Assembly (NCBI GenBank): GCA_018651725.1
Contig: JABIDK010000006.1
Location: forward strand, 48,482 to 112,481
DNA length: 64,000 nt
Origin: Candidatus Falkowbacteria bacterium
GTDB lineage: Bacteria; Patescibacteriota; Patescibacteriia; JAACEG01
Direction: 5' to 3'
The first letter of the stretch is position 1. Each line of letters opens with the position of its first letter. Position numbers and translations under genes: made by a program. Below are positions 40,491 through 57,907 of the stretch, one piece after another. The notes beneath the pieces are model-generated. The model had not been told where the DNA came from. It searched no databases and saw only the letters and a program-made list of their open reading frames with translations.

Positions 40491-42557
40491 ATGCAATTTG
40501 TCAATACTAAAACTCTGCGAATTTTATTTTTAATTATCATCGCTGTTTTAGTAGTTAATTTTGGTTACTCGTCTTTTAAGGAGAAAAAAAACAATACAGG
40601 CAAAAAAGTAAAACTTTATTGGTTTATTCCGGATGGGTTGCGGGCTGAGCCGGATTTATTTGATATTTATGCTTGGGCTCGCGAAGGAAGGTTACCGAAC
40701 ATTAAAAGAATGATGGATAAAGGTTCTTATGGGTTTACAGTCCCGGACTATCCTTCGCATACACCGGTTAATTTTGCTTCACTTTTAACAGGTTCGCATC
40801 CTAAGACACATGGGATTTCCGATGGACCGATGCGGGTCGAAGGTTATCCTTTGGATATTGTTCCTTTTTCCGGGTTTAAATCTAATGCCAAAAAAGTTCC
40901 ACCAGCCTGGCTTACCTTTGAAGATAACGATCTGGATGTATTTTTACTTTCTATGCCCGGCTCTACTCCGCCAGAACTATCACGCGGCACAACTGTTCGC
41001 GGTCGTTGGGGTGGCTGGGGAGCTGATTTTTATGCGGTTAACTTTCAGGACTCTACAGAGGAACTGGCGGAAGATTTTTTCTCGCGCAGTATGAGACTTT
41101 TTTACACCGGTCCGGAGTTAACGCAAACTTTAACATCCTCTCCTACTTTGGCTAAATTAGATTCTATTAAAAGTTATTCAGAGATAAAAGAAATAAAACT
41201 GGAAGCTTGGGACAAAACAGTTTATGGATTTATCTACGACTCAACTGATGATCAAAAAACAAACTACAATAAAATCGCTTTTTCATTTGATAAAAAAAAG
41301 ATCATTACCGATCTAGAAGACAAGAATTGGAGTGACTGGTTGCCGATAACCGTTAAGTGGCGGACAAAAGATGATTTTAATCTTTACACCACTAAAAAAA
41401 GTAAACTGGAGAGAAAATTTACAACCATCGATGTGCCAACAGAGTTTAAAATTAAAATTATCAAGTTAAGCAAAGATGGAAAGTTTAGAATCAGATTCTT
41501 TTACAATAATTTGAATAAATATTTAACTGCTCCTTCCGAAGTTGCTAAAGACTTGACCGAGAACGTCGGACCAATGGTTGATTTTGTTGATAATTTTCCG
41601 CCGCAGTTAATCTATTACCAAGAAGACAAAGAAACATTTTTAGAAGAAGCTGAAATGTCTTTTGACTGGCATAAAAATTCTGTTCCACATATTGTTCAAA
41701 ACTATTCCCCGGGAGTTATTTTGCATGATATTTATACTCCCAATCAAATGTTAACCAGTCGTTGGTGGCTGGGATATGTTGACCCGAACAGCGCGCGGTA
41801 TAACGATGTTAGTGAAGAAGAGCGAGAGACATTATGGCAGGAAGTTCATTGGATGTATAAAAAAATAGATGATATTGTGGGAGAGATCATGGATAATTTG
41901 GACGAGGAAAGTTATTTTGTTTTTACCTCTGACCATGGAGCCGCGCCACTCAATAAACGAGTTTATCTTAATAATTATTTTGCCAAAAAAGGGCTCTTAA
42001 AAATAAAGTATGATGAGAAAAATAAAATTTATGATATTGATTGGGATAACACCAAGGTAGCGTTCCTTAGAATGAACAGTATTTATATTAATCCGAATGG
42101 TTTGGGTGGAAATTGGAAAAGAGCCAAAGGCGAAGAGTACGAAAAATTACGAGAAGAAGTTATTAAATTATTAAATGAAATAAAAGACGAAAAAACCTTG
42201 TCTCCGGTAGAAAATGTGGTAAAATGGGAGAACGTAGAAGACTATCTTGATTTACCAAGCGATCGGGTTGGTGATTTAATAGTCTCAAATAAAATCGGCT
42301 ACGGCTGGAGCGAAGAAGTCAGTAAAGAAATGGAAATTTTTAAAACCCCGCTTAAGACCGGTTACAAACAAGCGATAAATCCTGAAGAGCACGCTGTCTG
42401 GGCACCGTTTATGATCATGGGACCAAACATCAAAGAAAATTTTCAGCTTGAAAATCCAATCAGTCATATCGACCAACTCCCAACCATTTTAAATCTAATG
42501 AAAATAGATATCCCTGATTATGTTGAAGGACGGGTTTTAGAGGAAGTAAAAAAATAA
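40491..42557 (+). CDS. Alkaline-phosphatase-superfamily enzyme (type I phosphodiesterase/nucleotide pyrophosphatase-like), membrane-anchored
   Basis: N-terminal TM. 'WFIPDGLRAEPD' is the metal-site region. 'FTSDHGAAP' is the DHG metal ligand motif. Confidence 0.6.
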   Translation: MQFVNTKTLRILFLIIIAVLVVNFGYSSFKEKKNNTGKKVKLYWFIPDGLRAEPDLFDIYAWAREGRLPNIKRMMDKGSYGFTVPDYPSHTPVNFASLLTGSHPKTHGISDGPMRVEGYPLDIVPFSGFKSNAKKVPPAWLTFEDNDLDVFLLSMPGSTPPELSRGTTVRGRWGGWGADFYAVNFQDSTEELAEDFFSRSMRLFYTGPELTQTLTSSPTLAKLDSIKSYSEIKEIKLEAWDKTVYGFIYDSTDDQKTNYNKIAFSFDKKKIITDLEDKNWSDWLPITVKWRTKDDFNLYTTKKSKLERKFTTIDVPTEFKIKIIKLSKDGKFRIRFFYNNLNKYLTAPSEVAKDLTENVGPMVDFVDNFPPQLIYYQEDKETFLEEAEMSFDWHKNSVPHIVQNYSPGVILHDIYTPNQMLTSRWWLGYVDPNSARYNDVSEEERETLWQEVHWMYKKIDDIVGEIMDNLDEESYFVFTSDHGAAPLNKRVYLNNYFAKKGLLKIKYDEKNKIYDIDWDNTKVAFLRMNSIYINPNGLGGNWKRAKGEEYEKLREEVIKLLNEIKDEKTLSPVENVVKWENVEDYLDLPSDRVGDLIVSNKIGYGWSEEVSKEMEIFKTPLKTGYKQAINPEEHAVWAPFMIMGPNIKENFQLENPISHIDQLPTILNLMKIDIPDYVEGRVLEEVKK

Positions 42558-42567
42558 TTTTTTTATT

Positions 42568-43164
42568 ATGAAATTAAAATATACAACAATTACATTAATC
42601 ATTTTAGTAGTAGGTATTTTTTTTATATATAAACAGCAAAATGATAACTCCCTCTACTCTACTCTTAAAAAAGAAGGTTTTAATTTGGAGTTGATTAATG
42701 ATTTTCAGATAAATAAAGATAACTTAAAAGAAAATCCTTATAAAAGCAGAATTATTTTAGCCAAAAACGATAATCTGCCAGCTGGCGGAGAAACAATTAA
42801 ATTAAAATTGCTTTATGATATGAATCAAGAGAAAGCTGAGGAATATATCGACGACCAAAAAGTTATTTTAACCAGTCTTTACGAGCCTATTCCACCGCCC
42901 TACCCTGAATTTATCGGCCAAGAAGTTAGTTGCGATGAAAAATATAAGCCAATTTTAAAAGAACATGAACTAGGAGAATATTATTTGCTTTACGCAGGAG
43001 AGCGATTTGGCTATGGAATTTGCGAGGAAGAAATGGTAAAGCATAAATCTCTTTTGGGATATTTTTATTGCGATAATAAATTAATTAAATTAGAATATTT
43101 TATAGATAAAAATCAAAATTTTGATTTAGTGGAAAAAATAATTAAAGATTTAAAGTGCATATGA
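42568..43164 (+). CDS. Membrane-anchored protein, paralog 1 of a three-member tandem family (unknown function)
   Basis: It shares the motifs 'YPYPEF', 'EC.EEYKP..KEH.LGEY.LLYA.E.FGYG.CEE' and 'LGYFYC.N...IEYF' with the next two ORFs. Confidence 0.5.
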   Translation: MKLKYTTITLIILVVGIFFIYKQQNDNSLYSTLKKEGFNLELINDFQINKDNLKENPYKSRIILAKNDNLPAGGETIKLKLLYDMNQEKAEEYIDDQKVILTSLYEPIPPPYPEFIGQEVSCDEKYKPILKEHELGEYYLLYAGERFGYGICEEEMVKHKSLLGYFYCDNKLIKLEYFIDKNQNFDLVEKIIKDLKCI

Positions 43165-43751
43165 TAAAAAAAATAATTTTAATTTTAATAATATTTGGTG
43201 GAGTAAGTTTTGGGGTTTGGAAATATAAAGAAAACCAAAGTAAATTTTTAGCCTACCATCTTAAAAGTATTGGTATAAAAATAGAACAAGCTGAAGATTT
43301 TTTAGTTACAGAAATAAGCGATCCCAAAAAAGGGAGCAAAGCAAGAACTATAACAGCCAAGAAAGATCAAGAAGAAATAAAAATAAAAATTGTAAATAAT
43401 GTTGAAAAAGACGAAGCCTTAAACTATATCGAAGATAAAAAAGAAAATTTTGAGAGTCTGTATAAATTAGCTAAAAACCCCTACCCTGAAGCAATGAAAA
43501 AACAAAAAGAATGCCCGGAAGAGTATAGGCCCGAAGTTAAAAAACACGGATACGGAGAATATTTTCTAACATATGCCGGAGAAGACTTAGGCTACGGTAT
43601 TTGCAAAGAAGATCTAGTCAGATATAAGGCAGTACTTGGATATTTTTACTGTGAAAATATAAGTTCTTTTATAAAGATTGAGTATTTTACATCAAAAGAA
43701 AAAAATCACGAAGAAATGAATTCATTAATAAACTCTTTTAGATGCGAATAA
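43155..43751 (+). CDS. Membrane-anchored protein, paralog 2
   Basis: Same conserved blocks ('NPYPEA...ECPEEYRPEVKKHGYGEYFLTYAGEDLGYGICKED...LGYFYCEN...IEYF'). Its start overlaps the stop of paralog 1. Confidence 0.5.
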   Translation: MHMIKKIILILIIFGGVSFGVWKYKENQSKFLAYHLKSIGIKIEQAEDFLVTEISDPKKGSKARTITAKKDQEEIKIKIVNNVEKDEALNYIEDKKENFESLYKLAKNPYPEAMKKQKECPEEYRPEVKKHGYGEYFLTYAGEDLGYGICKEDLVRYKAVLGYFYCENISSFIKIEYFTSKEKNHEEMNSLINSFRCE

Positions 43752-45487
43752 AGTACTTTAAAATTTTAATCATCATAAGTGGGGTTATTATTTTATTTTT
43801 TGTATATCAAAATTATACTAGCTCTTTAACTCATAATTTACAGAAAATAGGGTTAAGCTCAAAAGGATTATATGGCTTTAAGGTCGATGAACAAATCAAT
43901 TTTCAAGAACAAGTTATTGTTGCCAAAAAAAATGATGAGCAAATAAAAATAAAAATTACTCCAGATGTAAGTAATATAGAAGTGTTGAAATTAATTTCTA
44001 AAGAGGAAGAATTTTTGACAAGTATGTATGATTCCGTGCTCTATCCCTACCCTGAGTTTTTAGATAAAAAAAATGAGTGTGTAGAAGAATATAAGCCAAT
44101 AAAAAAAGAGCATGGACTAGGGGAATATTTTTTGCTATACGCTAAAGAAAATTTTAATTACGGAGCTTGTGAAGAAAAAGAAGCAAAATATAAAATACTG
44201 CTTACATTTTTTTATTTAGAAGAAGAGAATATTTTTTTGGAGTTGGAGTATAGCATATCAAAACAAAAAAGATTTTCTTCAATGGAAGAAATTATTAATA
44301 CTATAAAAGCCGACGACGAGGTCCTGAGCCTCGCTGGGCGGAATCAAGATGACACGACAGAGAAAGAGTTTTCTCAAAATGACACAAATAAAAATAAAAT
44401 AGAAATTTTCAGTGTGGCTGGTTGTCCTTTTACTCGCGATTTGGTGCATGCGCTGGCTCTTTTTTTAAAGAAAACAAATCAAGAAATTAGAGATAGTATG
44501 GATATAAAAATATCTTATTACGGCAAAGAATATGAAAAAGGCAAGTTTATCTCTTATCATGGTAAAGAAGAGCCGAAGCTGAATATTCTGGAGCTTTGCA
44601 TTATTGATAAGTACCCTGATAATTTAGAATATTTTTATATTATTGACTGTCTTTTTCAAAAAGTAAATTTAAGTAAGATAGATGAAAGCATTACGGATTT
44701 AATGGGTAGTTGGGAGACGTGTACTAAGGATGTGGCAGTTAATAAAAATGACGAAGTTAAAAAATGTGCCTCTTCAGAAGAGGGAAAAGATCTTTACAGG
44801 GAATCTATAGCTTATATTACCACTAAAAAATATGCTAAATTTCCGCCGATTTTGCGATTTAATGATAAAAATTTCCCCACTGTTAAGCCGGACGCCTTTA
44901 GACTTGAGCTCTGTAAAAAATTGGATAATAGTAGTTTGGAGTGCTTGGATATACCAGAGTGTTACGGAGAAGCTAACTGTCAAGACAAGAAAAATAAAGC
45001 GTCGTTTTGTATGAAAAATAAATGTGAATATGGTGATAAAATAAAAATGATTGTACTAACAGATGATTTTACAGATACTGAAAACAATTATGCTATAGAA
45101 TGGTATAGCTTGTTATACGGAGAATTTGATGTTGAGCATATTAATATTAATAGTTTTAAGGGTAGCCAATTAGCAAAAGAATTAAATTTACTGGAATTTC
45201 CGGTGATATTAATCGATGATCGTATTGAAAAAATAAACAGATTCAAAGAAAGGTTTGGCTACACCAGACTTATATTTTCTAACAAAAAAAATAATTGGTA
45301 CATTGTTGATCATGACAGGTTTAGTTTTACTAACGCAATTATTCGTGATCAGATTCAAAATGCTGAAGGAATTCATTTTCGAGATAGCGGGCTTAAAACC
45401 TCGGATAAAATGAAAGAATATTTTGGGAACCGCCCTGAATTTTACAAAGAATCAAAAGAATATTTTAATGAAAATTTTTTACAATGA
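43742..45487 (+). CDS. Paralog 3 with ~370-aa C-terminal extension (possible thioredoxin-like modules)
   Basis: The N-terminal 200 aa carry the family blocks. The extension has 'FSVAGCPFTRD' and 'EFPVILIDD', which resemble thioredoxin-fold motifs. This is inference only. Confidence 0.45.
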   Translation: MRIKYFKILIIISGVIILFFVYQNYTSSLTHNLQKIGLSSKGLYGFKVDEQINFQEQVIVAKKNDEQIKIKITPDVSNIEVLKLISKEEEFLTSMYDSVLYPYPEFLDKKNECVEEYKPIKKEHGLGEYFLLYAKENFNYGACEEKEAKYKILLTFFYLEEENIFLELEYSISKQKRFSSMEEIINTIKADDEVLSLAGRNQDDTTEKEFSQNDTNKNKIEIFSVAGCPFTRDLVHALALFLKKTNQEIRDSMDIKISYYGKEYEKGKFISYHGKEEPKLNILELCIIDKYPDNLEYFYIIDCLFQKVNLSKIDESITDLMGSWETCTKDVAVNKNDEVKKCASSEEGKDLYRESIAYITTKKYAKFPPILRFNDKNFPTVKPDAFRLELCKKLDNSSLECLDIPECYGEANCQDKKNKASFCMKNKCEYGDKIKMIVLTDDFTDTENNYAIEWYSLLYGEFDVEHININSFKGSQLAKELNLLEFPVILIDDRIEKINRFKERFGYTRLIFSNKKNNWYIVDHDRFSFTNAIIRDQIQNAEGIHFRDSGLKTSDKMKEYFGNRPEFYKESKEYFNENFLQ

Positions 45488-45624
45488 ATAAAATTTGCAA
45501 AAAATGCGTTTTGCCGGAAAGTAGGCCAAATATTTATTTAAACGATCAAGAGATTTATAATGTTTGCCTTGAAGATAAAAAGCAGGATAAGGAGGAGAAA
45601 TTATTGAAGTCTCTGGCAAGATGA
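45484..45624 (+). pseudogene. Detached N-terminal zinc-ribbon fragment homologous to the amidotransferase at 46310
   Basis: 'MNKICKKCVLPESRPNIYLNDQEIYNVC' aligns with 'KKICKKCILPETRPDIWLNEEGVCSVC' of the downstream gene. The ORF stops after 46 codons without a PP-loop. Its ATG overlaps the upstream stop (ATGA). Confidence 0.4.
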
Positions 45625-45665
45625 AGAAATATTTCAAAAAAAAGAAGAGGAACTAGAAAAATAAA

Positions 45666-45908
45666 ATGATTAAAAAAATCTTTGAAAAACAAAAAAAGTT
45701 TTTAATGCCCATGGTTAAGAAAGCGCAAAAAGTAATTGTTGCAATACTTTTGTTTTTATTGTATATTTTTGGATTTGGTTTAACAGCTATAATTTTATTG
45801 ATTTTTAATAGAAAGCTTTTGGGTTTTAAAAAAAGAGACAAAAATACATTTTGGGAAGATGCTAAAGGATATGAGACTGATACAGCTAAAAATTTAAGAC
45901 AATTTTAA
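45666..45908 (+). CDS. Small membrane protein of the kind found beside carbamoyltransferases (SxtJ-like)
   Basis: 80 aa with one TM and a charged tail. The call rests on position upstream of a DUF5989-like ORF and a carbamoyltransferase. Confidence 0.4.
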   Translation: MIKKIFEKQKKFLMPMVKKAQKVIVAILLFLLYIFGFGLTAIILLIFNRKLLGFKKRDKNTFWEDAKGYETDTAKNLRQF

Positions 45909-45909
45909 T

Positions 45910-46071
45910 ATGCAAAAAGTAATTTATATCTTAAAAGAATTATTTGGTTTAATTAAAGCTCACAAGCTTTATATTTTAACGCCGATTTTAGTAATGCTAG
46001 CTCTTATATCTTTTTTGGTTTATTATATAGGCCCTACTGTTATAATTTCTTTTATTTATGCGGGAGTTTAA
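45910..46071 (+). CDS. DUF5989-like (SxtK-like) small membrane protein
   Basis: 53 aa, 'MQKVIYILKELFGLIKAHKLYILTPILVMLALISFLVYYIG'. This is the typical sequence pattern of the short partner of SxtJ-like proteins. It is missing from the ORF track because it is under 60 aa. Confidence 0.4.
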   Translation: MQKVIYILKELFGLIKAHKLYILTPILVMLALISFLVYYIGPTVIISFIYAGV

Positions 46072-46077
46072 TTGCAT

Positions 46078-46302
46078 ATGAATGTTAATGAAAAAATAGA
46101 TTTAACTGGAATTCCTTGTCCTCACAATTTTGCTAGGGCTTTATTTAGGCTTGAAACAATGGATGAAGGTGAGATCTTGGAGATTATTATTGATGATGGT
46201 CGACCAATTAAAAAAATGCCAACGAGATTAACTGAGGAGGGATATAAAATTATCAAAAAAGAAAAAAAAGGAGAGAATTGGATTTTAGAAATCAAAAAAT
46301 AA
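46078..46302 (+). CDS. TusA-like (SirA/YedF) sulfur-carrier-fold protein
   Basis: 'IDLTGIPCPHNFARAL...GEILEIIIDDG' matches the TusA 'LD..GL.CP.P' motif, with CPHN in place of CPxP. Confidence 0.6.
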   Translation: MNVNEKIDLTGIPCPHNFARALFRLETMDEGEILEIIIDDGRPIKKMPTRLTEEGYKIIKKEKKGENWILEIKK

Positions 46303-46309
46303 ACAATCT

Positions 46310-47326
46310 ATGGAAGAGAAAAAAATATGTAAAAAATGTATATTACCAGAAACCAGGCCAGACATTTGGCTGAACGAAGAAGGTGTCTGTAGTGTTTGTG
46401 TTGTTTATGAAAATGAAAAAAAGTTTTCGAAAGGAGAAAAAGGAGCCCTTGAAACAGATTTTATCAAAATATTGGAAAAAAATAAAGGAAAGGGTGAGTA
46501 TGACTGCTTGGTGATGTGTAGTGGAGGAAAAGATAGTACTTCTGCTTTATATTATATAAAAGAAAGATATAAATTAAATCCATTGGCCTTTACTTTTGAT
46601 CATGGCTTTGAAACAAGTGATGCCCTGGAAAACGTTAATAAGGCAGTGGATAAATTAGGGGTAGATTTTCTTTTTTTCAAATCATCTTTTATGAAAGATA
46701 TGTTTGCAAAAATCTTAAAAACGCGGTCAAAAGCGGTTATTTGCCATCTATGTTCTATGTGGTATATGGATTTAACTTATAAAATAGCAGCAAAATATAA
46801 TGTTCCTATAATAATTGCCGGCTGGACAAAGGGGCAATCAGTAAAACAACCGGTAATGTCGAAGTGTGCTTGTAAGTCAGATTCACCTGAATATGCATCC
46901 ATGGCCAAAGCCACAAAAGATTTTATAGAGGAACATGTTAAGAATGATCCTAAATATAAAGGTTTCCCACAAAACATGGAGGAAGTTTTAAAAAAGGCTA
47001 AAAAAAGACACAAGTCAATGGTTGTATCCCCTCATTGGTTTTTACCGATAGACGCTGATGCTTATGTTGAAACAATTAAAAAAGAATTAGACTGGAAGTA
47101 TCCAGAGTTAAGCTATCCAGCAAAAACAACCAATTGTGAATTAAATTTTATCTCTGTTTATAATTCAAAAAAACATTATGGCTACACTCACTATGATCTG
47201 GAGATGAGCAGACTTATAAGAGAAGGCATTATCTCAAGAGAAGAAGCTCTAAGAGATTTAGAAATAAATTTTGATAAAGATTTATTAAACGTAATTGCAA
47301 AAAAACTAGGTTATAAATTTGAATAA
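46310..47326 (+). CDS. PP-loop ATP pyrophosphatase of the N-acetyl-sugar amidotransferase (WbuX/WbpG-like) type
   Basis: N-terminal zinc ribbon 'CKKCILPETRPDIWLNEEGVCSVC'. PP-loop is 'CSGGKDST'. A C-terminal 'ISREEAL' region is present. Confidence 0.55.
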   Translation: MEEKKICKKCILPETRPDIWLNEEGVCSVCVVYENEKKFSKGEKGALETDFIKILEKNKGKGEYDCLVMCSGGKDSTSALYYIKERYKLNPLAFTFDHGFETSDALENVNKAVDKLGVDFLFFKSSFMKDMFAKILKTRSKAVICHLCSMWYMDLTYKIAAKYNVPIIIAGWTKGQSVKQPVMSKCACKSDSPEYASMAKATKDFIEEHVKNDPKYKGFPQNMEEVLKKAKKRHKSMVVSPHWFLPIDADAYVETIKKELDWKYPELSYPAKTTNCELNFISVYNSKKHYGYTHYDLEMSRLIREGIISREEALRDLEINFDKDLLNVIAKKLGYKFE

Positions 47327-47329
47327 ATT

Positions 47330-49051
47330 ATGACTATATTAGGAATATCTTGTTATTACCATGATTCATCAGCCTGTCTTATAAAGGACGGCAAGTTAGT
47401 TGCGGCTGTTCAAGAAGAAAGATTTGATCGAAATAAATATTCATCCGCTTTTCCTATAAACTCTATTAATTATTGCCTCCAATCCGCTAATTTAACCTCT
47501 TATGATATTGACTATGTAGCTTTTTATGAAAAGCCCTTTTTAAAATTTGAAAGAATAATTTTGAATCACTTAAGATCTTATCCCTTTTCTTTAAAAAATT
47601 TTTTAGATACAACACCTCATTGGCTTAAAGATAGGCTAATCTTGCCACTAACACTTAAAGAAGAGCTGGGTTTCAAAGGAGATGTTTTTTTTATTAAACA
47701 TCATCTGGCTCATGCGGCAAGTACTTTTTTAACATCTCCTTTTGATAAAGCGGCAATTTTAACGGTGGATGGAGTCGGAGAATGGGCTACTACAACTTAT
47801 GGAACAGGAAAAGATAATAAAATAAATGTGTTAAAAGAAATTAAATACCCAAACTCTCTAGGACTTCTTTATTCAATTGTAACAACTTATCTTGGCTTTA
47901 GGGTTTTTTCTGGGGAGGGCAAGGTTATGGCCCTTGCTGAAACTGGTGACCCAAAATATTTAGATAAATTTAAAAAAATAATCAGCATCAAAGATGACGG
48001 TAGCTTTAGATTAAATAAAAAATATTTTTATTTTAATAAAGGTGGGCGGATGTATAACAATAATTTTATTAAACTTTTCGGTGATCCAAGAAGGGAAAAA
48101 GAGGATATTAAAGATAGGCATCGGGACGTAGCGGCTAGCTTACAAAAAACAGTAGAGGATATTATTTTAAAGATGGTTAAGCATATTCACAAAGAGACTG
48201 GTCTTGATAATTTGTGTCTCGCAGGAGGTGTTTTTTTAAATGTTACAACTAATACTAGAATAGTAAAAGAGTCTTTTTTCAAAAATGTTTTTATCCAACC
48301 AGCTGCCGGAGATAACGGTAGTGCCTTGGGAGCGGCTTTTTATGTGTATAATTCTTTAAAAAATCAACCAAGAAAGCATGTTATGAAAAATGCTTGTTTG
48401 GGGCCAGAATATAGTGATAAAAAAATTAAGATCTTTTTATCAAACAAGGGTGTTAAATTTAAACGACTAGAGAACGATGAACTGACAAAATATGTTGCCA
48501 AAAAAATTTCTCAAGATAAAATAGTTGGTTGGTTTCAAGGACGAATGGAGTTTGGTCCGCGAGCTTTGGGAAATAGGAGTATTTTAGCAAATCCCGGTAA
48601 TCCGAAAATAAAAGATATTTTAAACAAGAAAGTAAAGCACCGTGAATCATTTCGACCATTTGCAATCAGTATTTTACGCGAAGATTTAAATGATTTTTTT
48701 GACCTTGAAATTGATAGTCCTTTTATGCTTTTGGTCGGTAAGGTTAAAAAAGACGAGGTGAATTCCGGAGGAAGAGAGGGTGGTCTGGGCCAAAAAAAAG
48801 AATTAATTCCTGGAGCGCTTCACACTAATAATACCTCTCGTATCCAAACTGTTAAAAAAGAAGACAATGAGCTTTACTATAATTTAATTAAAGAATTTAA
48901 AAATATCACCGACTTACCTCTTGTAATTAACACCTCTTTTAACGATCAAGAGCCAATAGTCTGCACGCCCGAAGAAGCTTATAATTGCTTCGCAAGAACT
49001 AAAATCGATGTTTTAGTATTAGGAAATTATATCGTTGAAAAATATGTTTAA
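47330..49051 (+). CDS. Carbamoyltransferase (NodU/CmcH family)
   Basis: 'ILGISCYYHDSSACLIKDGKLVAAVQEERF' is the Kae1/YgjD-like N-domain of NodU-type O-carbamoyltransferases. Length is 573 aa. Confidence 0.8.
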   Translation: MTILGISCYYHDSSACLIKDGKLVAAVQEERFDRNKYSSAFPINSINYCLQSANLTSYDIDYVAFYEKPFLKFERIILNHLRSYPFSLKNFLDTTPHWLKDRLILPLTLKEELGFKGDVFFIKHHLAHAASTFLTSPFDKAAILTVDGVGEWATTTYGTGKDNKINVLKEIKYPNSLGLLYSIVTTYLGFRVFSGEGKVMALAETGDPKYLDKFKKIISIKDDGSFRLNKKYFYFNKGGRMYNNNFIKLFGDPRREKEDIKDRHRDVAASLQKTVEDIILKMVKHIHKETGLDNLCLAGGVFLNVTTNTRIVKESFFKNVFIQPAAGDNGSALGAAFYVYNSLKNQPRKHVMKNACLGPEYSDKKIKIFLSNKGVKFKRLENDELTKYVAKKISQDKIVGWFQGRMEFGPRALGNRSILANPGNPKIKDILNKKVKHRESFRPFAISILREDLNDFFDLEIDSPFMLLVGKVKKDEVNSGGREGGLGQKKELIPGALHTNNTSRIQTVKKEDNELYYNLIKEFKNITDLPLVINTSFNDQEPIVCTPEEAYNCFARTKIDVLVLGNYIVEKYV

Positions 49052-52000
49052 AAAAATAACTTTAATTTTTTTAGGAGTTTTGATATCTCTAACTTTGCTT
49101 GAGATCAGTTTGCGTTTAGCCGGCAAAGGGTTTTTGTATATTCAAGAAAAAAGAAATATAGTTAGTGAAGAAAAAAATGTTTTTACGATTTTGTGTATCG
49201 GAGAATCAACTACTGCGCTTGCCGGGGATAAAACCAATATTTTTTTAACGGATAAGGAATCTTTTCCAAGACAGTTGGAAGAGATTTTAAATGAAAAATA
49301 CGATGATACGGAATTTAAAGTTATCAATAAAGGTATAATGGTCGGTGATTCAATAAAAATCTTAAGGGAACTAGAAGATGACTTAAATGAATATAATCCC
49401 GATATGGTGATTTCTATGATGGGATTAAAAGACACAAATCATACCTCGCTCTTTAATAAACCAATGATTCTGTCCGGAAATAAGAAAATTGATGAAAAGG
49501 AAGACGATTTTTTTTGGGAGAAGTTTAAAATCTATGGCCTTGTAGGTTTTATTAAAGAGCGCTTGGGAAATAACAAAACCTTGGAAGAAAAAATAGATTT
49601 AGAGGGATTAGCCGAAGATGTTTATTTTACACCTGATCTTTACGCTCGGATTTTTCACTTTAAAGAAGGAGAACGCATCGATGAAGGCACAATGAAAAAA
49701 CTTCTTATAGGGAAATTTTATGAGGATCGGGGCATGTATACTGAGGCAGAAAAGATATATAAAGAAGAAGTGAAAAATAAAAAAGCCGGGTATTTGGGGC
49801 TGGTCAGCGTTTACACACAGGAAGAAAAGTTTATAGAAGCTGAGGAAGTATTAAAAAAGGCCATCAGCGAAAATCCAAATTACAGTATTTACATAGCTGA
49901 GCTAGGAAAGCTCTATGAGGAAATAAATAAAGAACAAGAAGCTGAAGAAATGTTTTTGCAGGCCATTGAAATAGACGCAAACGAATATGTTTATATTGAG
50001 GCCGGTAAATTCTATAAAGTAACCGGTAACCATAAAAAAGCCGAGGAGATGTTTTTGCGCGCTATTGAAGTAAATGAAAAAGAATTTTACGCTTTTGAAG
50101 AAGCCGGTAAATTTTACAAAGAAGTTGGTAACCAAGAAAAAGCTGAAGAGCTGTTTCTAAAAGCAATTGAAGTTAATCCGCAAAAACACACGAGTTATCT
50201 TAATCTTGAAGATCTTTATAGTCAACAAAAAGATTATATTAAAGAGGAGAATATTTACAAGCAAGCGATTGTTGCTAACCAGAGAATCGGCGAATACTTT
50301 GAGCTTGTGAAATTTTATCAAAATCATGAAAAAGAAGAAGGTGCTAAAAAAGTTTTTGTTGACGCTCTTAAAAATGTTCCCTCTTATGGACATAACTACA
50401 AAATGCTTTTAGAAATTTTAGAGGAAAAAAATATACCTTTAGTAGCTATGGGCTACCCTTCTTATAATTTGGGTTTATTAAAAAATATTTTCCCTGAAAA
50501 TGATAAAATAACATTTATTGATAATAAAAATGTTTTTGAAAGTAGAGATCAAGAAGATTTTTATTTTGAAAATAAATTTCCTTATCAATTTAATCATTAC
50601 ACAAAATTGGGAGCCAAATTAATAGCAGACAATATTGCCAGCGCTATCGAAGATAGTGTTAAAAAAATAAATCAGCCAGAGGCTGGTCAGTCTCTGGCTG
50701 AAAAACAAGAATTAGGGGTTGATTTATCTTGTCCGGATTGCAATCTGATTGTTGTGTCTCTTTCTAATGTTCGGAAGGATCATTTGGGGCTTTATGGATA
50801 TTCTCGCGATACCTCCCCTAATATCGATGAATTTTTTAAAGATTCAATTGTGTTTGACTCTACTTTTGCACCGGCTTCTTGGACTTTCACAAACGCGGTT
50901 TCGTTTTTGACATCGCTTTCTCCGTATAAACATGGTATAATGGAAAGGAAGAAAAATGTTAATTTATCAAAGATAAATAACATAAAATTTTTAGCTGAAA
51001 TTTTAAAAGATAATAACTATAAAACAGCCGCTTTTGTCAGTGATGAAGACTATAACCGCAAATATGGGCTGAATAGGGGCTTTGATACTTTCTTTGATAA
51101 AAATAGTTATTTTGATTATGGCATAAAGTTTAATCCCGGGGAGTATAATATCGGGACCAAGCAACTTGTTGGTCCGGCCGTAGATTGGATGAAAGAAAAT
51201 TATAAAGATAAATTTTTTTTGCTTCTTCAGGGTTTTGATGCTCATTGTCCGTATACGCCAAATAGCCCTTACGATAAAAAATTTAGTTCTAAGGAGAGTA
51301 AACAAGATTTTTCTGAGTGCTATATTACTCCTAAAGTTGTTGAATCAATAGAAACAGATAGTGGAAAAAAGTGGCCATTGCAAAGCTGGTCTTCCTTTAA
51401 AGAAAAAGGAGATGAAAAAATATTGTTTAAGAAAGAAGATATCGAACAAATGATAACGCTTTATGATGGAGAAATAGCCCAAGCCGATAATAATTTAAAA
51501 GATTTGTTTGAAACAATAGAAGATCTGGACTTAACAAAAAATACAATAATTGTTTTCTTGTCAGAACACGGTGAATTATTTGGTGAAAACGGATTTTTTA
51601 TGAGAGTTTCTTTAAGCGCTCAGGGAACTTTAAACGATAAAATAATTAATATTCCTTTTATAATGAAGCATCCTAAGGTAGATAGAGCGATGCAAATTGA
51701 TAGTCTAGTTCAATTGATTGATTTAGCGCCTACTTTTTTACAGATCTTAGGACTGGAAGGATACTATGGCGGGCAGATGCAGGGTAAAAGTATTGTACCG
51801 GTTATTACTAAAAACAAAGAAGTGAATGAATTTGTTTATGGGGGCGTAAAGCGAAAACATTCTATTTATGATCCAGACGAGGTTTTTCTAACCGAGTTTA
51901 TTAGAGACAAGCAATGGAAGCTGTTAAAAGAAATAATAATAAACAGTAAATCACAAGAGCAAATTTCGGAATTTTACGGACTTTATAATACAATAAAAGA

Positions 52001-52094
52001 TTCTGAGGAGAAAGAAAATTTATATGATCAAAATAACAATATAGCAAAACAATTATTAAATAATTTAAACTTATGGGTAACAGAACAAAAGTAA
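49035..52094 (+). CDS. Multidomain membrane-anchored protein: SGNH-like hydrolase blocks split by TPR repeats, plus C-terminal sulfatase-fold (AlkP-superfamily) domain
   Basis: N-terminal TM. 'LCIGESTTA' is like SGNH block I. 'FNHYTKLGAKLIA' is like block V. Between them are ~6 TPR-like repeats ('AEEMFLQAIEID...AEELFLKAIEVNP'). The C-terminus has 'CPDCNLIVVSLSNVRKDHLGLYGY' and 'SEHGELFGENG'. Confidence 0.55.
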   Translation: MKNMFKKITLIFLGVLISLTLLEISLRLAGKGFLYIQEKRNIVSEEKNVFTILCIGESTTALAGDKTNIFLTDKESFPRQLEEILNEKYDDTEFKVINKGIMVGDSIKILRELEDDLNEYNPDMVISMMGLKDTNHTSLFNKPMILSGNKKIDEKEDDFFWEKFKIYGLVGFIKERLGNNKTLEEKIDLEGLAEDVYFTPDLYARIFHFKEGERIDEGTMKKLLIGKFYEDRGMYTEAEKIYKEEVKNKKAGYLGLVSVYTQEEKFIEAEEVLKKAISENPNYSIYIAELGKLYEEINKEQEAEEMFLQAIEIDANEYVYIEAGKFYKVTGNHKKAEEMFLRAIEVNEKEFYAFEEAGKFYKEVGNQEKAEELFLKAIEVNPQKHTSYLNLEDLYSQQKDYIKEENIYKQAIVANQRIGEYFELVKFYQNHEKEEGAKKVFVDALKNVPSYGHNYKMLLEILEEKNIPLVAMGYPSYNLGLLKNIFPENDKITFIDNKNVFESRDQEDFYFENKFPYQFNHYTKLGAKLIADNIASAIEDSVKKINQPEAGQSLAEKQELGVDLSCPDCNLIVVSLSNVRKDHLGLYGYSRDTSPNIDEFFKDSIVFDSTFAPASWTFTNAVSFLTSLSPYKHGIMERKKNVNLSKINNIKFLAEILKDNNYKTAAFVSDEDYNRKYGLNRGFDTFFDKNSYFDYGIKFNPGEYNIGTKQLVGPAVDWMKENYKDKFFLLLQGFDAHCPYTPNSPYDKKFSSKESKQDFSECYITPKVVESIETDSGKKWPLQSWSSFKEKGDEKILFKKEDIEQMITLYDGEIAQADNNLKDLFETIEDLDLTKNTIIVFLSEHGELFGENGFFMRVSLSAQGTLNDKIINIPFIMKHPKVDRAMQIDSLVQLIDLAPTFLQILGLEGYYGGQMQGKSIVPVITKNKEVNEFVYGGVKRKHSIYDPDEVFLTEFIRDKQWKLLKEIIINSKSQEQISEFYGLYNTIKDSEEKENLYDQNNNIAKQLLNNLNLWVTEQK

Positions 52095-53860: not shown

Positions 53861-56515
53861 ATGAAGAAATTTATTATAATTTTATTTTTTGTATTAAGCG
53901 TTATTTTAATAACGCTTTTTTTCTCTGGTAAAACTGTTGATAGTGACCCGTTAAATTGTAAGGATTGTAATTTAATAATTATTTCTCTTACAAATACGCG
54001 CAAGGATAATCTCGGTATCTATAATCACAAAGAAATAACATCTCCTAATATTGATAATTTTTTCAAAAATTCACTTATTTTTGAAAATACTTTTTCTCCT
54101 TCTCCTTGGACACTTCCAAATGCTGCTACTTTATTTACCACCCTGCCACCTTTTAAACATAAAGTTATAAGTAGATACAAAGACAATAAACTGCCAAAAA
54201 ATGCAAAAACTTTAGCTCAAATTTTACAAGATAACAACTATAAAACAGCTGCTTTTACCGGGGGTGGAGATTATGATCGAAGTTATGGTTTCAATAAAGG
54301 CTTTGATGAGTATTATGACGAAAAAAAATTTGCCAAGCTAGATTACTATAAAGATGATATTATTTCTTGGTTAAACACTAATGAAAAAGATAAGTTTTTC
54401 TTATTCTTGCAAGGTTTTGATACGCACTGCCCTTTTTCTCCACCATCTTCACCAGAGACAAAAACATGTTTTTGGAATTTACATGATTCAGAAGAAGATT
54501 TAGTTTACACTCAGGGTGATAATAATGAGACAATCACAAAGATATTAAGCGAAAACGACAAGGAACAATTAAAAAACCTTTACAATGAAGAGATCCAGGA
54601 AGCGGATAATAATTTAGGAGAAATTTTTAAAACTATAACGGATTTAAAATTAGACAAAAAAACCATCATTGTTTTTTTGTCAGAGCACGGGGATTTACTG
54701 GGAGAAAAAAATCAATTTATGAGAACAGATGTAATTGGCAGTTTTTCCGATAAGGTTTTAAATATTCCTTTTCTTATTAAGCACCCCTTTATTAAAACAA
54801 AACAAAAAATCAATGAACTTGTACAATTGTCAGATGTAATGCCAAGTGTTTTAAGGATGTTAAATATTGATTATAAAAAAGAAAATTTACAAGGAAAAGA
54901 TATAACATCTTTGGTTAGTAGTAATAAAAAAATTAATGATTATGTTTACGCCGGGCTTACTTACAAGGGCACAGAAGACAGCCAATTTTTTAGAGATATA
55001 AGACTGGGGAGTATGATTAGAGATTTGAACAATAAATTAGTTCATTATCAGATTTTTGATTTAGAAAACAATAGTTCTACAAAAGATTATTATGAATTTT
55101 ATAATATTAAAAAAGATTCAAGTGAATTAAATAATAATATAAAAGAAGCAATTTCTACACCGGAATTTAAAAGTTTAAAAAATAAATTGTTTACAATAGA
55201 AAATAAAACAGTGAAAGAATTTTCTTTACCGTCTTTATTTGCCTCACAAATTGATAATGTTGTTTTAATCACAATCGATACGTTGCGCGCAGATCATTTG
55301 AGCTTTATGGGTTATCCTCGTAACACCTCACCCTTTTTAGATAAATTAGTAAAAAAAAGCATTTTATTTAAAAATGCTCACACAGTTATTCCAAACACCG
55401 CCCCATCTCACGCCTCTATTTTTACAGGCTTATATCCGTCACAGCATGGAGTAACAAATCAATACGAGGAACTAGAGGAACAGTTTGTGACCATAGCGGA
55501 AGTTTTTCAAGAAAACAGATACAAAACGTTGGGATTTTCTTCTAGTCAATTTTTATTTTCTGAAAATAATTTAAATCAAGGATTTGGCTTCATAAAGGAA
55601 ATAATACCTCAAAAAAATAAAAGATATTTCGGGAGGCCGGCAAGTGTTGTAATAAACAAGGTTATAGAAAAATTACCATCGAAAAATTCATTTTTATGGG
55701 TACATTTTTTAGATCCACATTATCCGTTTAATACTTATAACTCAGATTTTAAAAATAAATTTACTGATACCGACGATAGTCTTGTAGAATTTTGGATAAA
55801 AAATCAGGGAGTAAACTTAGATATCTATAAAAAAAACAAAAAAGAAAATTTAATAAAAACAATGAATGCCTATGACACGGAGATTTTATTTGTTGATCAG
55901 CAAATTGAAAAACTATATAATCACTTTGAGGAAAAAGGATTAAATAGCAATACGCTTTGGGTAATCACTTCTGATCACGGCGAAGGTCTGGGGAGTCATG
56001 ATTTTTTTGAACATGGAAATAAGTTGTACGAAGAAGAGTTGCTTGCCCCGATTATCTTTAAATTTCCAGGTCAACTTCAGCTGGAATCAAAAACAATAAA
56101 TACTTTGGTAGAAAATATTGATATTATGCCAACCATTTTGGATATTATGGATCTTCCTTTAAGTGACATAGAGATGCAAGGCAAATCATTGTTTGGGAAA
56201 ATTTTAGGAGACAAAAGTAAAGACGAGGAGTTTTCTGTTGCCTGGACAGGTAATCTTCCTAAGGGAGTAAGAAACCCGGAAATTGAGAGTATCAATTTTG
56301 ATAATGTTATTTGGGATGGTAATAAAATATCTATTCAAAATAATGAGTACAAATATATTTATAATATAGATATAGAAACTAAGAATGAACTTTACGATTT
56401 TAGAAATGATCCGCTTGAGAAAAATAACTTAATAAATAAATCATCGAACAAAGCAGATGAATTTAAAAATATTTTAATGCAAAAAATTAAGGAATTAAAA
56501 ATTTTACCAATTTAA
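53861..56515 (+). CDS. Membrane-anchored protein with two tandem sulfatase-fold (AlkP-superfamily) domains
   Basis: Domain 1 has 'CKDCNLIIISLTNTRKDNLGIY' and 'SEHGDLLGEKN'. Domain 2 has 'VVLITIDTLRADHLSFMGYPRNTSPFLD', 'NTAPSHASIFTGLYPSQHG' and 'TSDHGEGLGSHDFFEHG'. Confidence 0.6.
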   Translation: MKKFIIILFFVLSVILITLFFSGKTVDSDPLNCKDCNLIIISLTNTRKDNLGIYNHKEITSPNIDNFFKNSLIFENTFSPSPWTLPNAATLFTTLPPFKHKVISRYKDNKLPKNAKTLAQILQDNNYKTAAFTGGGDYDRSYGFNKGFDEYYDEKKFAKLDYYKDDIISWLNTNEKDKFFLFLQGFDTHCPFSPPSSPETKTCFWNLHDSEEDLVYTQGDNNETITKILSENDKEQLKNLYNEEIQEADNNLGEIFKTITDLKLDKKTIIVFLSEHGDLLGEKNQFMRTDVIGSFSDKVLNIPFLIKHPFIKTKQKINELVQLSDVMPSVLRMLNIDYKKENLQGKDITSLVSSNKKINDYVYAGLTYKGTEDSQFFRDIRLGSMIRDLNNKLVHYQIFDLENNSSTKDYYEFYNIKKDSSELNNNIKEAISTPEFKSLKNKLFTIENKTVKEFSLPSLFASQIDNVVLITIDTLRADHLSFMGYPRNTSPFLDKLVKKSILFKNAHTVIPNTAPSHASIFTGLYPSQHGVTNQYEELEEQFVTIAEVFQENRYKTLGFSSSQFLFSENNLNQGFGFIKEIIPQKNKRYFGRPASVVINKVIEKLPSKNSFLWVHFLDPHYPFNTYNSDFKNKFTDTDDSLVEFWIKNQGVNLDIYKKNKKENLIKTMNAYDTEILFVDQQIEKLYNHFEEKGLNSNTLWVITSDHGEGLGSHDFFEHGNKLYEEELLAPIIFKFPGQLQLESKTINTLVENIDIMPTILDIMDLPLSDIEMQGKSLFGKILGDKSKDEEFSVAWTGNLPKGVRNPEIESINFDNVIWDGNKISIQNNEYKYIYNIDIETKNELYDFRNDPLEKNNLINKSSNKADEFKNILMQKIKELKILPI

Positions 56516-56527
56516 CAACAGCCCCAT

Positions 56528-57907
56528 ATGAAAACTATATTAAATTTTTTAGAGAAAAATTATTTGCGTATAATTTTAACAGTTTTGATAATGTCTTTAT
56601 TGCTTATTTTTGGAAGTTCTTTAAATAGATCGTTTGATCACGATGAGTTCGAGGCGATTCACACAGCTTGGAAAATTTCAGAAGGTGAAGTAATTTACTC
56701 TGATTTTTTCCAGCACCACCACCCCTTATTTTATTATTTATTAGTACCTTTTATAGAAATATTTGGAGAAAATGTTAATACGATTTTAACGATTAGGTTT
56801 TTTATTTTTTTAGTTTTGCTCGGCATTGTTATCACAACCTATTTGTTGGCAAGAATAATTTTTAAAAATAAAAAATGGTCTTTAATCAGCGCCACTCTAC
56901 TCCCTCTTTTTATTGTTTTCGCAAATAAGGGGATTGAAGTAAGACCGGATATTCCTCAAACTTTTTTCGGACTTCTCTCAGTGCTGTTTCTGTTTTATTA
57001 TTTTGACAATCGAAGAAATAAAAATTTAATATTAAGCTCTGTATTTTTAGGAATTTCTTTTCTTTTTTTACAAAAAACTTTATTTTTAATAGTTCTTTTT
57101 GGTTGTTTTTTTATTTATTTATTATTCAAAAAGAAAATAGCTTATAAGAATTTTTTAATTTATTGGGGGACTTTATTTTTTATTTTAATTTTATTTGCTA
57201 TATTTTTATTTTTTTCCGGAAATATCAAAGAATACTTTTTTTTAAACTGGGCTTTGAACATTAATTTTTTAAACGACTTTTCTTCTTTTAAGTATTTTTT
57301 AGAAATTATCAAACAAAATATTATAATTTTTATTTTTTACATAGTCGGATTATTGTCTTTAGTTAAAAAAAGACAGTTAAGGGGTGTAGGTTTTTTATCT
57401 CTCGGGCTTTTACTGTCTGTATTTTTATTGAAAACCCCGTTTGCTCAAAATTATTTATTAGCTCTACCCTTTATTTGCATAATATCTGTTTTAGGCATAA
57501 AGTTTATTATAAAGGATAAGATAATTATTTTATTAATAATATTAATTTCCTCTTCAATTTCATTTAATATTCTAGCAGTTAATTTACAGAACTCTAATAA
57601 AGATCAATTAAATAAAATAAATCATATTTTATCCATTACCGACAAAGATGATTACATCCACGACGGTGACGCACAGTTTAATTTATTCAGAAAAGATTTA
57701 GATTATTTTTGGTTTGGACTTAAGGAAAATGGTGCTTTGTCAACTTATAATTCCATACGTGGATATGAATATAACACTTACGATTTAATAAAAAAATTCA
57801 AGCCAAAGGTTGTTTCTGATCGCTTTGTGGATGTAAGTAATGAGTATATTTTTAATAATTATATGGAAGATAATAATTTTAATCATATCCTTATAAAAAT
57901 ACCTTAG
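56528..57907 (+). CDS. GT-C-fold membrane glycosyltransferase-like protein (PMT/ArnT-like)
   Basis: ~11 TM. The first extracytoplasmic loop is 'FDHDEFEAIHTAWKISEGEVIYSDFFQHHHP', which resembles the DE...Y...A...G loop of PMT/ArnT enzymes. Confidence 0.45.
   Translation: MKTILNFLEKNYLRIILTVLIMSLLLIFGSSLNRSFDHDEFEAIHTAWKISEGEVIYSDFFQHHHPLFYYLLVPFIEIFGENVNTILTIRFFIFLVLLGIVITTYLLARIIFKNKKWSLISATLLPLFIVFANKGIEVRPDIPQTFFGLLSVLFLFYYFDNRRNKNLILSSVFLGISFLFLQKTLFLIVLFGCFFIYLLFKKKIAYKNFLIYWGTLFFILILFAIFLFFSGNIKEYFFLNWALNINFLNDFSSFKYFLEIIKQNIIIFIFYIVGLLSLVKKRQLRGVGFLSLGLLLSVFLLKTPFAQNYLLALPFICIISVLGIKFIIKDKIIILLIILISSSISFNILAVNLQNSNKDQLNKINHILSITDKDDYIHDGDAQFNLFRKDLDYFWFGLKENGALSTYNSIRGYEYNTYDLIKKFKPKVVSDRFVDVSNEYIFNNYMEDNNFNHILIKIP

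Follow-up and report, generated by a model that had tools for sequence, protein, structure and literature searches.

A widespread gene module linking carbamoyl transfer to a predicted persulfide relay through a NASAT-fold PP-loop enzyme in Candidatus Falkowbacteria and other phyla

What does a carbamoyltransferase (CT) have to do with a sulfur-carrier protein and a PP-loop ATP pyrophosphatase? The question is raised by a run of genes in a 64-kb stretch of DNA, here called the window, from a metagenome-assembled genome (MAG) of Candidatus Falkowbacteria (locus tags HOD96_...). Six open reading frames (ORFs), all on the plus strand and nearly contiguous (gaps of 1–7 bp, or overlaps), make up the cluster, and the run extends into a seventh ORF downstream. 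An earlier note on this DNA had listed the same six ORFs, which the present analysis bears out, and had called the association of a CT with the other genes unusual; it proves to be no local oddity but a widespread and conserved module. The genes of the run are the following.

45484–45624, plus strand: 46-aa remnant (pseudogene fragment) of a second NASAT-like PP-loop paralog, reduced to the N-terminal zinc-ribbon region and matching the WbuX model at its N-terminus only
45666–45908, plus strand: 80-aa membrane protein with a single transmembrane (TM) segment, a short protein in the SxtJ position; no Pfam or NCBIfam family
45910–46071, plus strand: 53-aa DUF5989 membrane microprotein of SxtK size, C-terminus FIYAGV; Pfam DUF5989
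46072–46302, plus strand: 76-aa TusA-family sulfur-carrier protein; Pfam TusA
46310–47326, plus strand: 338-aa NASAT-fold PP-loop ATP pyrophosphatase, a predicted sulfur-inserting enzyme; best family TIGR03573
47330–49051, plus strand: 573-aa CT of the NodU/CmcH/SxtI type; Carbam_trans_N and Carbam_trans_C
49035–52094, plus strand: 1019-aa SGNH/GDSL-like and TPR protein, fused to a sulfatase-fold domain; Pfam matches

The true start of the TusA gene is probably the ATG at 46078 rather than position 46072.

The gene combination is a conserved module and not a chance neighbourhood. A locus scan that kept one genome per species gave 80 loci. The window proteins, together with the desulfurase and TusA of another locus (L003), served as queries against all loci, and the neighbour counts reported here refer to 85 non-redundant loci, the window included. 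Database homologs of the PP-loop protein number 2557, and the top 120 are 63–72% identical to it even across phyla. The loci span more than 10 phyla, among them Omnitrophota, Planctomycetota, Elusimicrobiota, Bacteroidota, Bdellovibrionota, Desulfobacterota, Gemmatimonadota and Patescibacteria; one Thermoplasmatota MAG is also among the scanned loci. A TusA gene lies within 3 kb of the PP-loop gene at 55 of the 85 loci and directly upstream of it on the same strand at 47; the earlier note had allowed that TusA might be missing from orthologous clusters as a chance neighbour, which these counts contradict. An Aminotran_5 gene (a cysteine desulfurase of the NifS/IscS type) is found nearby at 36 loci, a CT gene within 6 kb at 61, a DUF5989 gene at 64, a homolog of the 80-aa protein at 45 and an SGNH/GDSL N-domain at 37. 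Both TusA and CT accompany the PP-loop gene at 34 loci, TusA without CT at 21, CT without TusA at 27 and neither at only 3, and the PP-loop gene is the hinge of the module, occurring with the sulfur set, the carbamoyl set or both.

The order SxtJ–DUF5989–TusA–PP-loop–CT, exactly as in the window, is repeated at five loci (L011, L051, L078, L086 and L088); the recurrence covers Planctomycetota and Bacteroidales loci as well as the close relatives L086 and L088, whose PP-loop proteins are 92% and 86% identical to that of the window (72% for L087). When all the neighbouring ORFs of the 85 loci were clustered, no further family appeared in more than 6 loci, which means that no HisH/HisF pair, glycosyltransferase set, MBOAT protein or Fe–S scaffold is a conserved companion; the window has no HisH/HisF-like partner either, as the earlier note had remarked. 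In a neighbour-joining tree, TusA-linked and TusA-less PP-loop proteins are interspersed, so the linkage to TusA must have been gained or lost repeatedly, and no clean boundary between two subtypes could be drawn. We give an even chance to the picture of a laterally spread module with two halves, a carbamoyl-transfer set and a sulfur relay.

What kind of enzyme is the PP-loop protein at the centre of this module? Its best family is TIGR03573 (WbuX), matched over model positions 2–321 of 344, and to that extent the earlier assignment to the N-acetyl-sugar amidotransferase type stands; at 165.3 bits, however, the protein fails the curated cut-off of 203.2, as do its relatives P0121, P0125 and P0126, while P0174, P0176 and P0206 pass it. 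The Pfam QueC match is weak (28 bits). With the N-acetyl-sugar amidotransferases (NASAT; WbuX, WbpG, LfnA and PseA) it shares the fold, the SGGxDS motif, present here as 71-SGGKDS-76 and invariant in the family, and the Zn tetracysteine, whose published form is CxxC-Xn-[GN]xCxxC (PMC10607449) and which is satisfied by C7, C10, C27 and C30 together with G25, all invariant. The fold of the whole protein is that of NASAT, as in the solved Legionella pneumophila member (8WEX), and not that of TtuA, ThiI or MnmA, and a profile search of the PP-loop protein returned no THUMP or other RNA-binding domain.

The cysteines set the clade apart. Cys70, directly before the PP-loop, is present in 86 of 91 family sequences, and Cys186-x-Cys188, located in an inserted loop that is disordered in the model, in 83 of 91; neither is found in the three proteins that pass the WbuX cut-off. 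Together with the low score, these clade-specific residues separate the module enzyme from the firm WbuX grouping that the earlier note had considered as an alternative. A further set, C145xxC148 and C276, is invariant in the family and missing from the L. pneumophila enzyme. The CxxC sits about 70 residues past the PP-loop and aligns, in profile-to-PDB alignments, with the Fe–S ligands C128/C131 of TtuA PH0300 and with the CxxC of [4Fe-4S]-LarE; C276, C70 and C186/C188 are candidates for a third ligand.

Five loci carry double or tandem PP-loop paralogs, with the adjacent pairs at L063:8001-10000, L081:1629-3688, L082:2322-4369, L084:554-2577 and L087:1-549. The members of a pair are complementary, one of them being without the CxC loop or carrying Leu at the position of Cys70, a hint that the enzyme may be heteromeric. 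More distant NASAT-like PP-loop domains, 30–35% identical, occur inside non-ribosomal peptide synthetase modules (P0150, P0156, P0158, P0160, P0210 and P0266); P0158 has the architecture C-A-[NASAT-like 896-1222]-PCP, and fusions to condensation, thioesterase or PP-binding domains occur among the rest. P0166 combines a NASAT-like domain with a B12-binding radical-SAM domain. Such arrangements suggest tailoring domains that form amidines or thioamides.

On the sulfur side, the 76-aa protein matches Pfam TusA (PF01206) with 57.8 bits against a cut-off of 28.6 and carries the motif GIPCPHN, in agreement with the earlier reading of a TusA-like protein with CPHN. The form G-[VI]-P-C-P-x-N, including its Cys, is conserved in 57 aligned TusA copies from the loci, which by this signature form a dedicated subfamily with CPxN instead of CPxP. 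The linked desulfurases retain both the lysine that binds pyridoxal phosphate (PLP; HKIHGPKG) and the persulfide Cys (S[TA]GSAC) in 31 of 31 cases, and are therefore of the NifS/IscS type rather than C–S lyases of the YcfC type, which do without the persulfide Cys (PMC12494993). The YcfA–YcfC system of 6-thioguanine biosynthesis, in which a PP-loop enzyme forms a thioamide, differs from the module in this respect and in a second one, since YcfC cleaves a Cys adduct as a C–S lyase and works without a carrier protein, whereas the module has TusA as a carrier.

Because desulfurase, TusA and PP-loop enzyme make up the canonical layout of a persulfide relay, we infer an exchange of oxygen for sulfur by this clade of the NASAT fold; the direction of sulfur flow and the substrate proposed here are likewise read from gene context and conserved residues. 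The desulfurase, which in the genome of the window would be encoded outside the 64 kb, would load persulfide onto the CPxN TusA, and TusA would pass it to the PP-loop enzyme. The latter would adenylate a carbonyl oxygen, as is thought to happen to the acetamido group in WbuX-type enzymes, and replace the oxygen with sulfur, with C70 and the flexible C186xC188 loop accepting the persulfide and perhaps a metal or Fe–S site at C145/C148/C276 assisting. NASAT chemistry activates an amide-type carbonyl, and the nearest one is the carbamoyl produced from the gene 3 bp downstream, so the most economical substrate would be the carbamoyl carbonyl delivered by the adjacent CT, and the product a thiocarbamoyl group; we put this product forward as a tentative working guess. 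The earlier suggestion that a PP-loop enzyme beside a TusA-like carrier signals sulfur transfer gains weight from the upstream position of TusA and from the nearby desulfurases with their invariant persulfide Cys.

The same protein could also be an ordinary WbuX/NASAT amidotransferase that uses free ammonia, turning an acetamido or carbamoyl/ureido group into an amidine, isourea or guanidine by the logic of ornithine carbamoyltransferase followed by argininosuccinate synthetase, with TusA acting as a regulator or serving another process. For such a reaction the protein has the NASAT fold, the Zn ribbon and the PP-loop, and TIGR03573 scores best; moreover, PP-loop paralogs without the CxC loop (P0125/L091, the second copy of L063 and the upstream copy of L087) occupy the same operon slot without TusA, and 27 of the 85 loci have a CT with no TusA nearby. 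Ammonia use would leave unexplained the 47 loci with TusA directly upstream and the 36 with a true desulfurase, as well as the C70 and CxC loop, which bona fide WbuX proteins lack, and the score below the WbuX cut-off. Enzymes of the WbuX type (WbuXYZ) normally come with HisH/HisF-like ammonia-supplying subunits or lie in a sugar-nucleotide/O-antigen cluster. Among the ORFs of the 85 loci, no glutaminase/HisF-like partner and no sugar-nucleotide or glycosyltransferase genes are conserved, whereas the gene for the WbuX-scoring P0174 is surrounded by GT4 glycosyltransferase and epimerase genes. We regard the ammonia-dependent reaction as unlikely.

The desulfurase and TusA might alternatively do no more than build or repair a metal or Fe–S site at C145/C148/C276, without providing the sulfur of the product. 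The invariance of these residues and their alignment with the cluster ligands of TtuA and [4Fe-4S]-LarE speak for such a site. Dedicated cluster assembly, on the other hand, usually involves a scaffold (IscU, NifU or SufBCD), none of which is conserved in the loci, and TusA normally carries persulfide for thiolation instead of serving as a cluster scaffold. The clusters of TtuA, NcsA and LarE, furthermore, are themselves the sites that deliver the sulfur, and the explanation would then largely merge with the thiolation that we propose; taken as a separate explanation it is improbable.

The carbamoyl side of the module comprises four proteins. The 573-aa ORF has both domains of a NodU/CmcH CT (Carbam_trans_N, 290.8 bits; Carbam_trans_C, 223.8 bits), in an architecture with a Kae1-like N domain and a YrdC-like C domain, and the CT orthologs near PP-loop genes are 47–59% identical to it. 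The 53-aa ORF passes the Pfam cut-off for DUF5989 (PF19451; 32.8 bits against 27), a family of more than 6,000 proteins for which no paper containing the term was found in the searchable literature. Profile searches accordingly sustain the earlier CT and DUF5989 assignments, but not the SxtJ assignment of the 80-aa protein, which, as listed above, matches no family. A profile of its own family gave 18 database matches, all unnamed; the homologs always adjoin DUF5989 and have invariant L29, Y33 and W63. In a weak hhalign match (probability 59%, E 9e-5), the 80-aa protein aligns with the last 45 residues of a protein of 132 aa at locus L005, the positional SxtJ between a CT and a DUF5989 gene; the alignment covers the C-terminal TM segment and tail, and both proteins end in ...RQ[FS]. 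By its position and this match, the 80-aa protein is tentatively regarded as SxtJ-like.

The conserved fourth partner is contained in the 1019-aa ORF, in which Pfam detects weak NonGDSL/Lipase_GDSL_2 matches, TPR repeats and a sulfatase domain (122 bits). Approximately the first 560 residues form the SGNH–TPR part, the conserved SxtL-like portion, and in the ORF clustering this family ranks third in conservation among the neighbours, with 48 loci and often several copies. The Ser of SGNH block I, G-[NED]-S-x-T, is kept in 43 of 46 sequences, and the protein has an N-terminal hydrophobic anchor that, by the positive-inside rule, would place the SGNH domain outside the cytoplasm. At L086:8722-11908, SGNH–TPR and the sulfatase fold are two separate genes, and their fusion in the window is lineage-specific.

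These four gene types correspond to a known series. The saxitoxin cluster has the order sxtI-J-K-L, where SxtJ and SxtK have no assigned function, sxtK measures 165 bp (PMC2679770) and SxtL is GDSL-lipase-like (PMC2679770, PMC2885083). The module has the same types in the same order, namely a CT, a small membrane protein, a microprotein of about 54 aa and a GDSL-type protein. It differs in that the SxtJ-position protein is single-TM and 73–80 aa long as opposed to 134 aa in SxtJ, the SGNH partner is membrane-anchored and TPR-bearing, and TusA and PP-loop genes are added; its hosts are non-toxigenic uncultured phyla. A second resemblance lies at the extreme C-terminus of DUF5989, FIYAG[VIFL], which fits FxYxx[FVILM] in 61 of 62 copies from the loci and in 120 of the 120 database matches listed (P0289–P0408). 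The exact form FxYxxF is found in a minority of copies and in the canonical CT triad of L005, whose DUF5989 protein (L005:3651-3809) ends in FIYTLF. FxYxxF is the acyl-shuttle motif of DltX and PatA (FIYANF in NgPatA), whose Tyr delivers an acyl group to an SGNH protein outside the cytoplasm, at its catalytic Ser (PMC12148441). As in the DltB–DltX–DltD and PatA–PatB systems, DUF5989 is a single-TM microprotein that ends in a hexapeptide with an invariant Tyr and is encoded beside a membrane-anchored SGNH protein that has a catalytic Ser; in contrast to those MBOAT–SGNH systems, the module has no MBOAT, and what it activates would be a carbamoyl group, as carbamoyl-AMP made by the CT, rather than an acyl-CoA or D-Ala-carrier.

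On the strength of this likeness we propose that the CT, the SxtJ-position protein, DUF5989 and the SGNH/GDSL–TPR protein form a carbamoyl-transfer set equivalent to sxtI-J-K-L, which would export a carbamoyl-derived group from the cytoplasm and pass it to an acceptor outside. The C-terminal Tyr of DUF5989/SxtK would act as a shuttle of the DltX/PatA kind and the SGNH protein as the final transferase, a role assigned from context and residues.

A PilZ (c-di-GMP receptor) gene is located at L091:1461-1895, directly upstream of an operon with the order PP-loop–SxtJ-short–DUF5989–CT–SGNH, and P0148 is a fusion in which PilZ precedes the NASAT-like part. Adjacency and fusion suggest control by c-di-GMP, as in exopolysaccharide systems.

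Could the sulfur genes instead be a tRNA or nucleotide thiolation system that is merely co-operonic with the carbamoylation genes? Desulfurase, TusA and PP-loop enzyme are indeed the canonical layout for tRNA thiolation (PMC12494993), the 60–70% identity across phyla suggests a conserved substrate, and 21 of the 85 loci have TusA with no CT nearby. Compared with the PP-loop thiolation enzymes (MnmA and ThiI with IscS–TusA, TtuA, NcsA, TtcA and [4Fe-4S]-LarE), however, the module enzyme has the basin-shaped shell of NASAT, rather than the fold of TtuA, ThiI or MnmA or any RNA-binding domain, and its context is one of membrane and envelope proteins, not of translation. The two partner sets are both present at 34 loci and both missing at 3 only, the TusA, PP-loop and SGNH genes are directly adjacent on the P0121 contig, and the PilZ links point to exopolysaccharide-type systems. 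The PP-loop substrate is almost certainly not tRNA, and a co-operonic nucleic-acid system is the least probable of the explanations considered here.

In a further scheme, analogous to HypF/HypE, the CT would carbamoylate the Cys or persulfide of TusA and the PP-loop ATPase would dehydrate the adduct to a thiocyanate or cyano donor, for which QueC-type nitrile formation and HypE-type dehydration offer parallels. There is no direct evidence for it; sets of CT, SxtJ, DUF5989 and SGNH are common without TusA or PP-loop (the first triad of L005, for example), O-carbamoylation is the accepted role of such sets (PMC2679770) and simple S-carbamoylation would have no need of a desulfurase. This scheme is very improbable.

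Taken as a whole, a module with two halves, in which a carbamoyl set is coupled to a persulfide relay that thiolates an adenylated carbonyl and the 46-aa ORF is a dead remnant, seems to us evenly poised between right and wrong. Its most specific version, an MBOAT-independent pathway that would place thiocarbamoyl groups on an envelope or exopolysaccharide polymer by way of the CT, the NifS–TusA–PP-loop relay, the DUF5989 Tyr and the SGNH protein, is rather doubtful. Several observations weigh on the other side. No cysteine desulfurase was detected in the 64-kb window at E ≤ 1e-3, and the 27 loci with a CT and no TusA have no desulfurase within reach either; the TusA-less loci and the CxC-less paralogs mean that the PP-loop step may not always involve sulfur. 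C145, C148 and C276 are shared with proteins that pass the WbuX cut-off and are consequently not diagnostic of sulfur chemistry, and a macromolecular substrate that is itself conserved, for instance RNA, would be equally compatible with 60–70% identity between phyla. As for the shuttle, the last residue of the DUF5989 motif is mostly V or I and not F, and no MBOAT, other conserved polytopic protein or channel that could load the Tyr was found in the 85 loci.

What remains to be placed in the cluster is the 46-aa ORF at its upstream end, which the earlier note had linked to the N-terminus of the amidotransferase and had taken for either a decayed duplicate or a standalone zinc-ribbon partner. 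The link itself is sound: the ORF matches WbuX model positions 2–35 (E 1.5e-6) and, in tblastn, the N-termini of dozens of PP-loop orthologs (E 1e-7 to 1e-11), which indicates real homology rather than chance. Only about 37 residues of homology are left, and the Zn motif has decayed to EIYNVC, with the Gly and the third Zn Cys lost, so that the NASAT Zn motif fails. In L086 and L088, a gene for a GILT protein abuts or overlaps the 80-aa gene and leaves no room for the ORF. With its broken Zn motif, its short homologous stretch and its absence from these close relatives, a standalone partner is rejected.

Decay, by contrast, is borne out, although not of a copy of the resident gene. The ORF is 47–52% identical to the N-terminus of the resident PP-loop protein and 59–73% identical to orthologs in other phyla, which rules out a recent duplicate of the resident 5′ end, and its six best matches (59–66% identity) are all PP-loop proteins encoded directly upstream of SxtJ-short genes. 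In L087 a true second PP-loop paralog occupies the slot, in the order paralog, 80-aa gene, DUF5989, desulfurase, TusA, PP-loop, CT and SGNH. Since the best matches sit upstream of the 80-aa gene and the resident protein reaches only 47%, the ORF is read as a non-functional remnant of a lost second PP-loop paralog that stood upstream of the SxtJ-position gene.

The component families are all known, while their assembly is undescribed: literature searches on this set of genes yielded nothing beyond general reviews of sulfur trafficking, and no paper retrieved paired a CT with a TusA/PP-loop/desulfurase set. If the proposal is true, the NASAT fold, so far tied only to amidine formation, would gain a clade of more than 2,500 proteins that use sulfur, and SxtJ, SxtK and SxtL, unexplained for more than 15 years in the saxitoxin literature, would acquire roles in a membrane shuttle and as an SGNH transferase. 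Many uncultured phyla, including the minimal-genome candidate phyla radiation (CPR), would then devote genes specifically to a (thio)carbamoyl modification of their surface. Such a surface chemistry would be new and would extend to Omnitrophota, CPR, Elusimicrobia and Bdellovibrionota, among others, and the specific Tyr, the Cys loop and the TusA subfamily would be direct targets for mutagenesis.

Around the cluster, the window contains a dense array of six proteins with a sulfatase/phosphodiesterase fold (40491–42557, the C-terminal half of 49035–52094, 53861–56515, 57909–59432, 59407–60918 and 60923–62461), one of which, 884 aa long, is matched in two stretches; two GT-C glycosyltransferases of the PMT_2 type (56528–57907 and 62440–63813) are interspersed among them. 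The earlier note had proposed that the modification pathway feeds this array. The array is partly present in L086 and is not found beside the module in other phyla; with no conservation outside the Falkowbacteria relatives, it is rejected as part of the system, and the only conserved downstream partner is the SGNH/GDSL–TPR part of the 1019-aa protein.

Upstream of the cluster lie three tandem paralogous modules of about 198 aa, signal-anchored and with overlapping starts and stops (42568–43164, 43155–43751 and 43742–45487). The repeated module has no family match; its copies share YPEF...C.EEYKP..K.H..GEY.L.YAGE..GYG.CEE, and the third copy is longer, with an additional GILT-type thiol-reductase domain (42.7 bits) and a long tail rich in Cys. 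Across the window, genes lie on the plus strand from 1 to 17.5 kb, on the minus strand from 18 to 32 kb and on the plus strand again from 32.5 kb, and both GC and AT skew flip sign with gene orientation near positions ~18000 and ~32000, which is consistent with a strand-biased composition that follows the direction of transcription.

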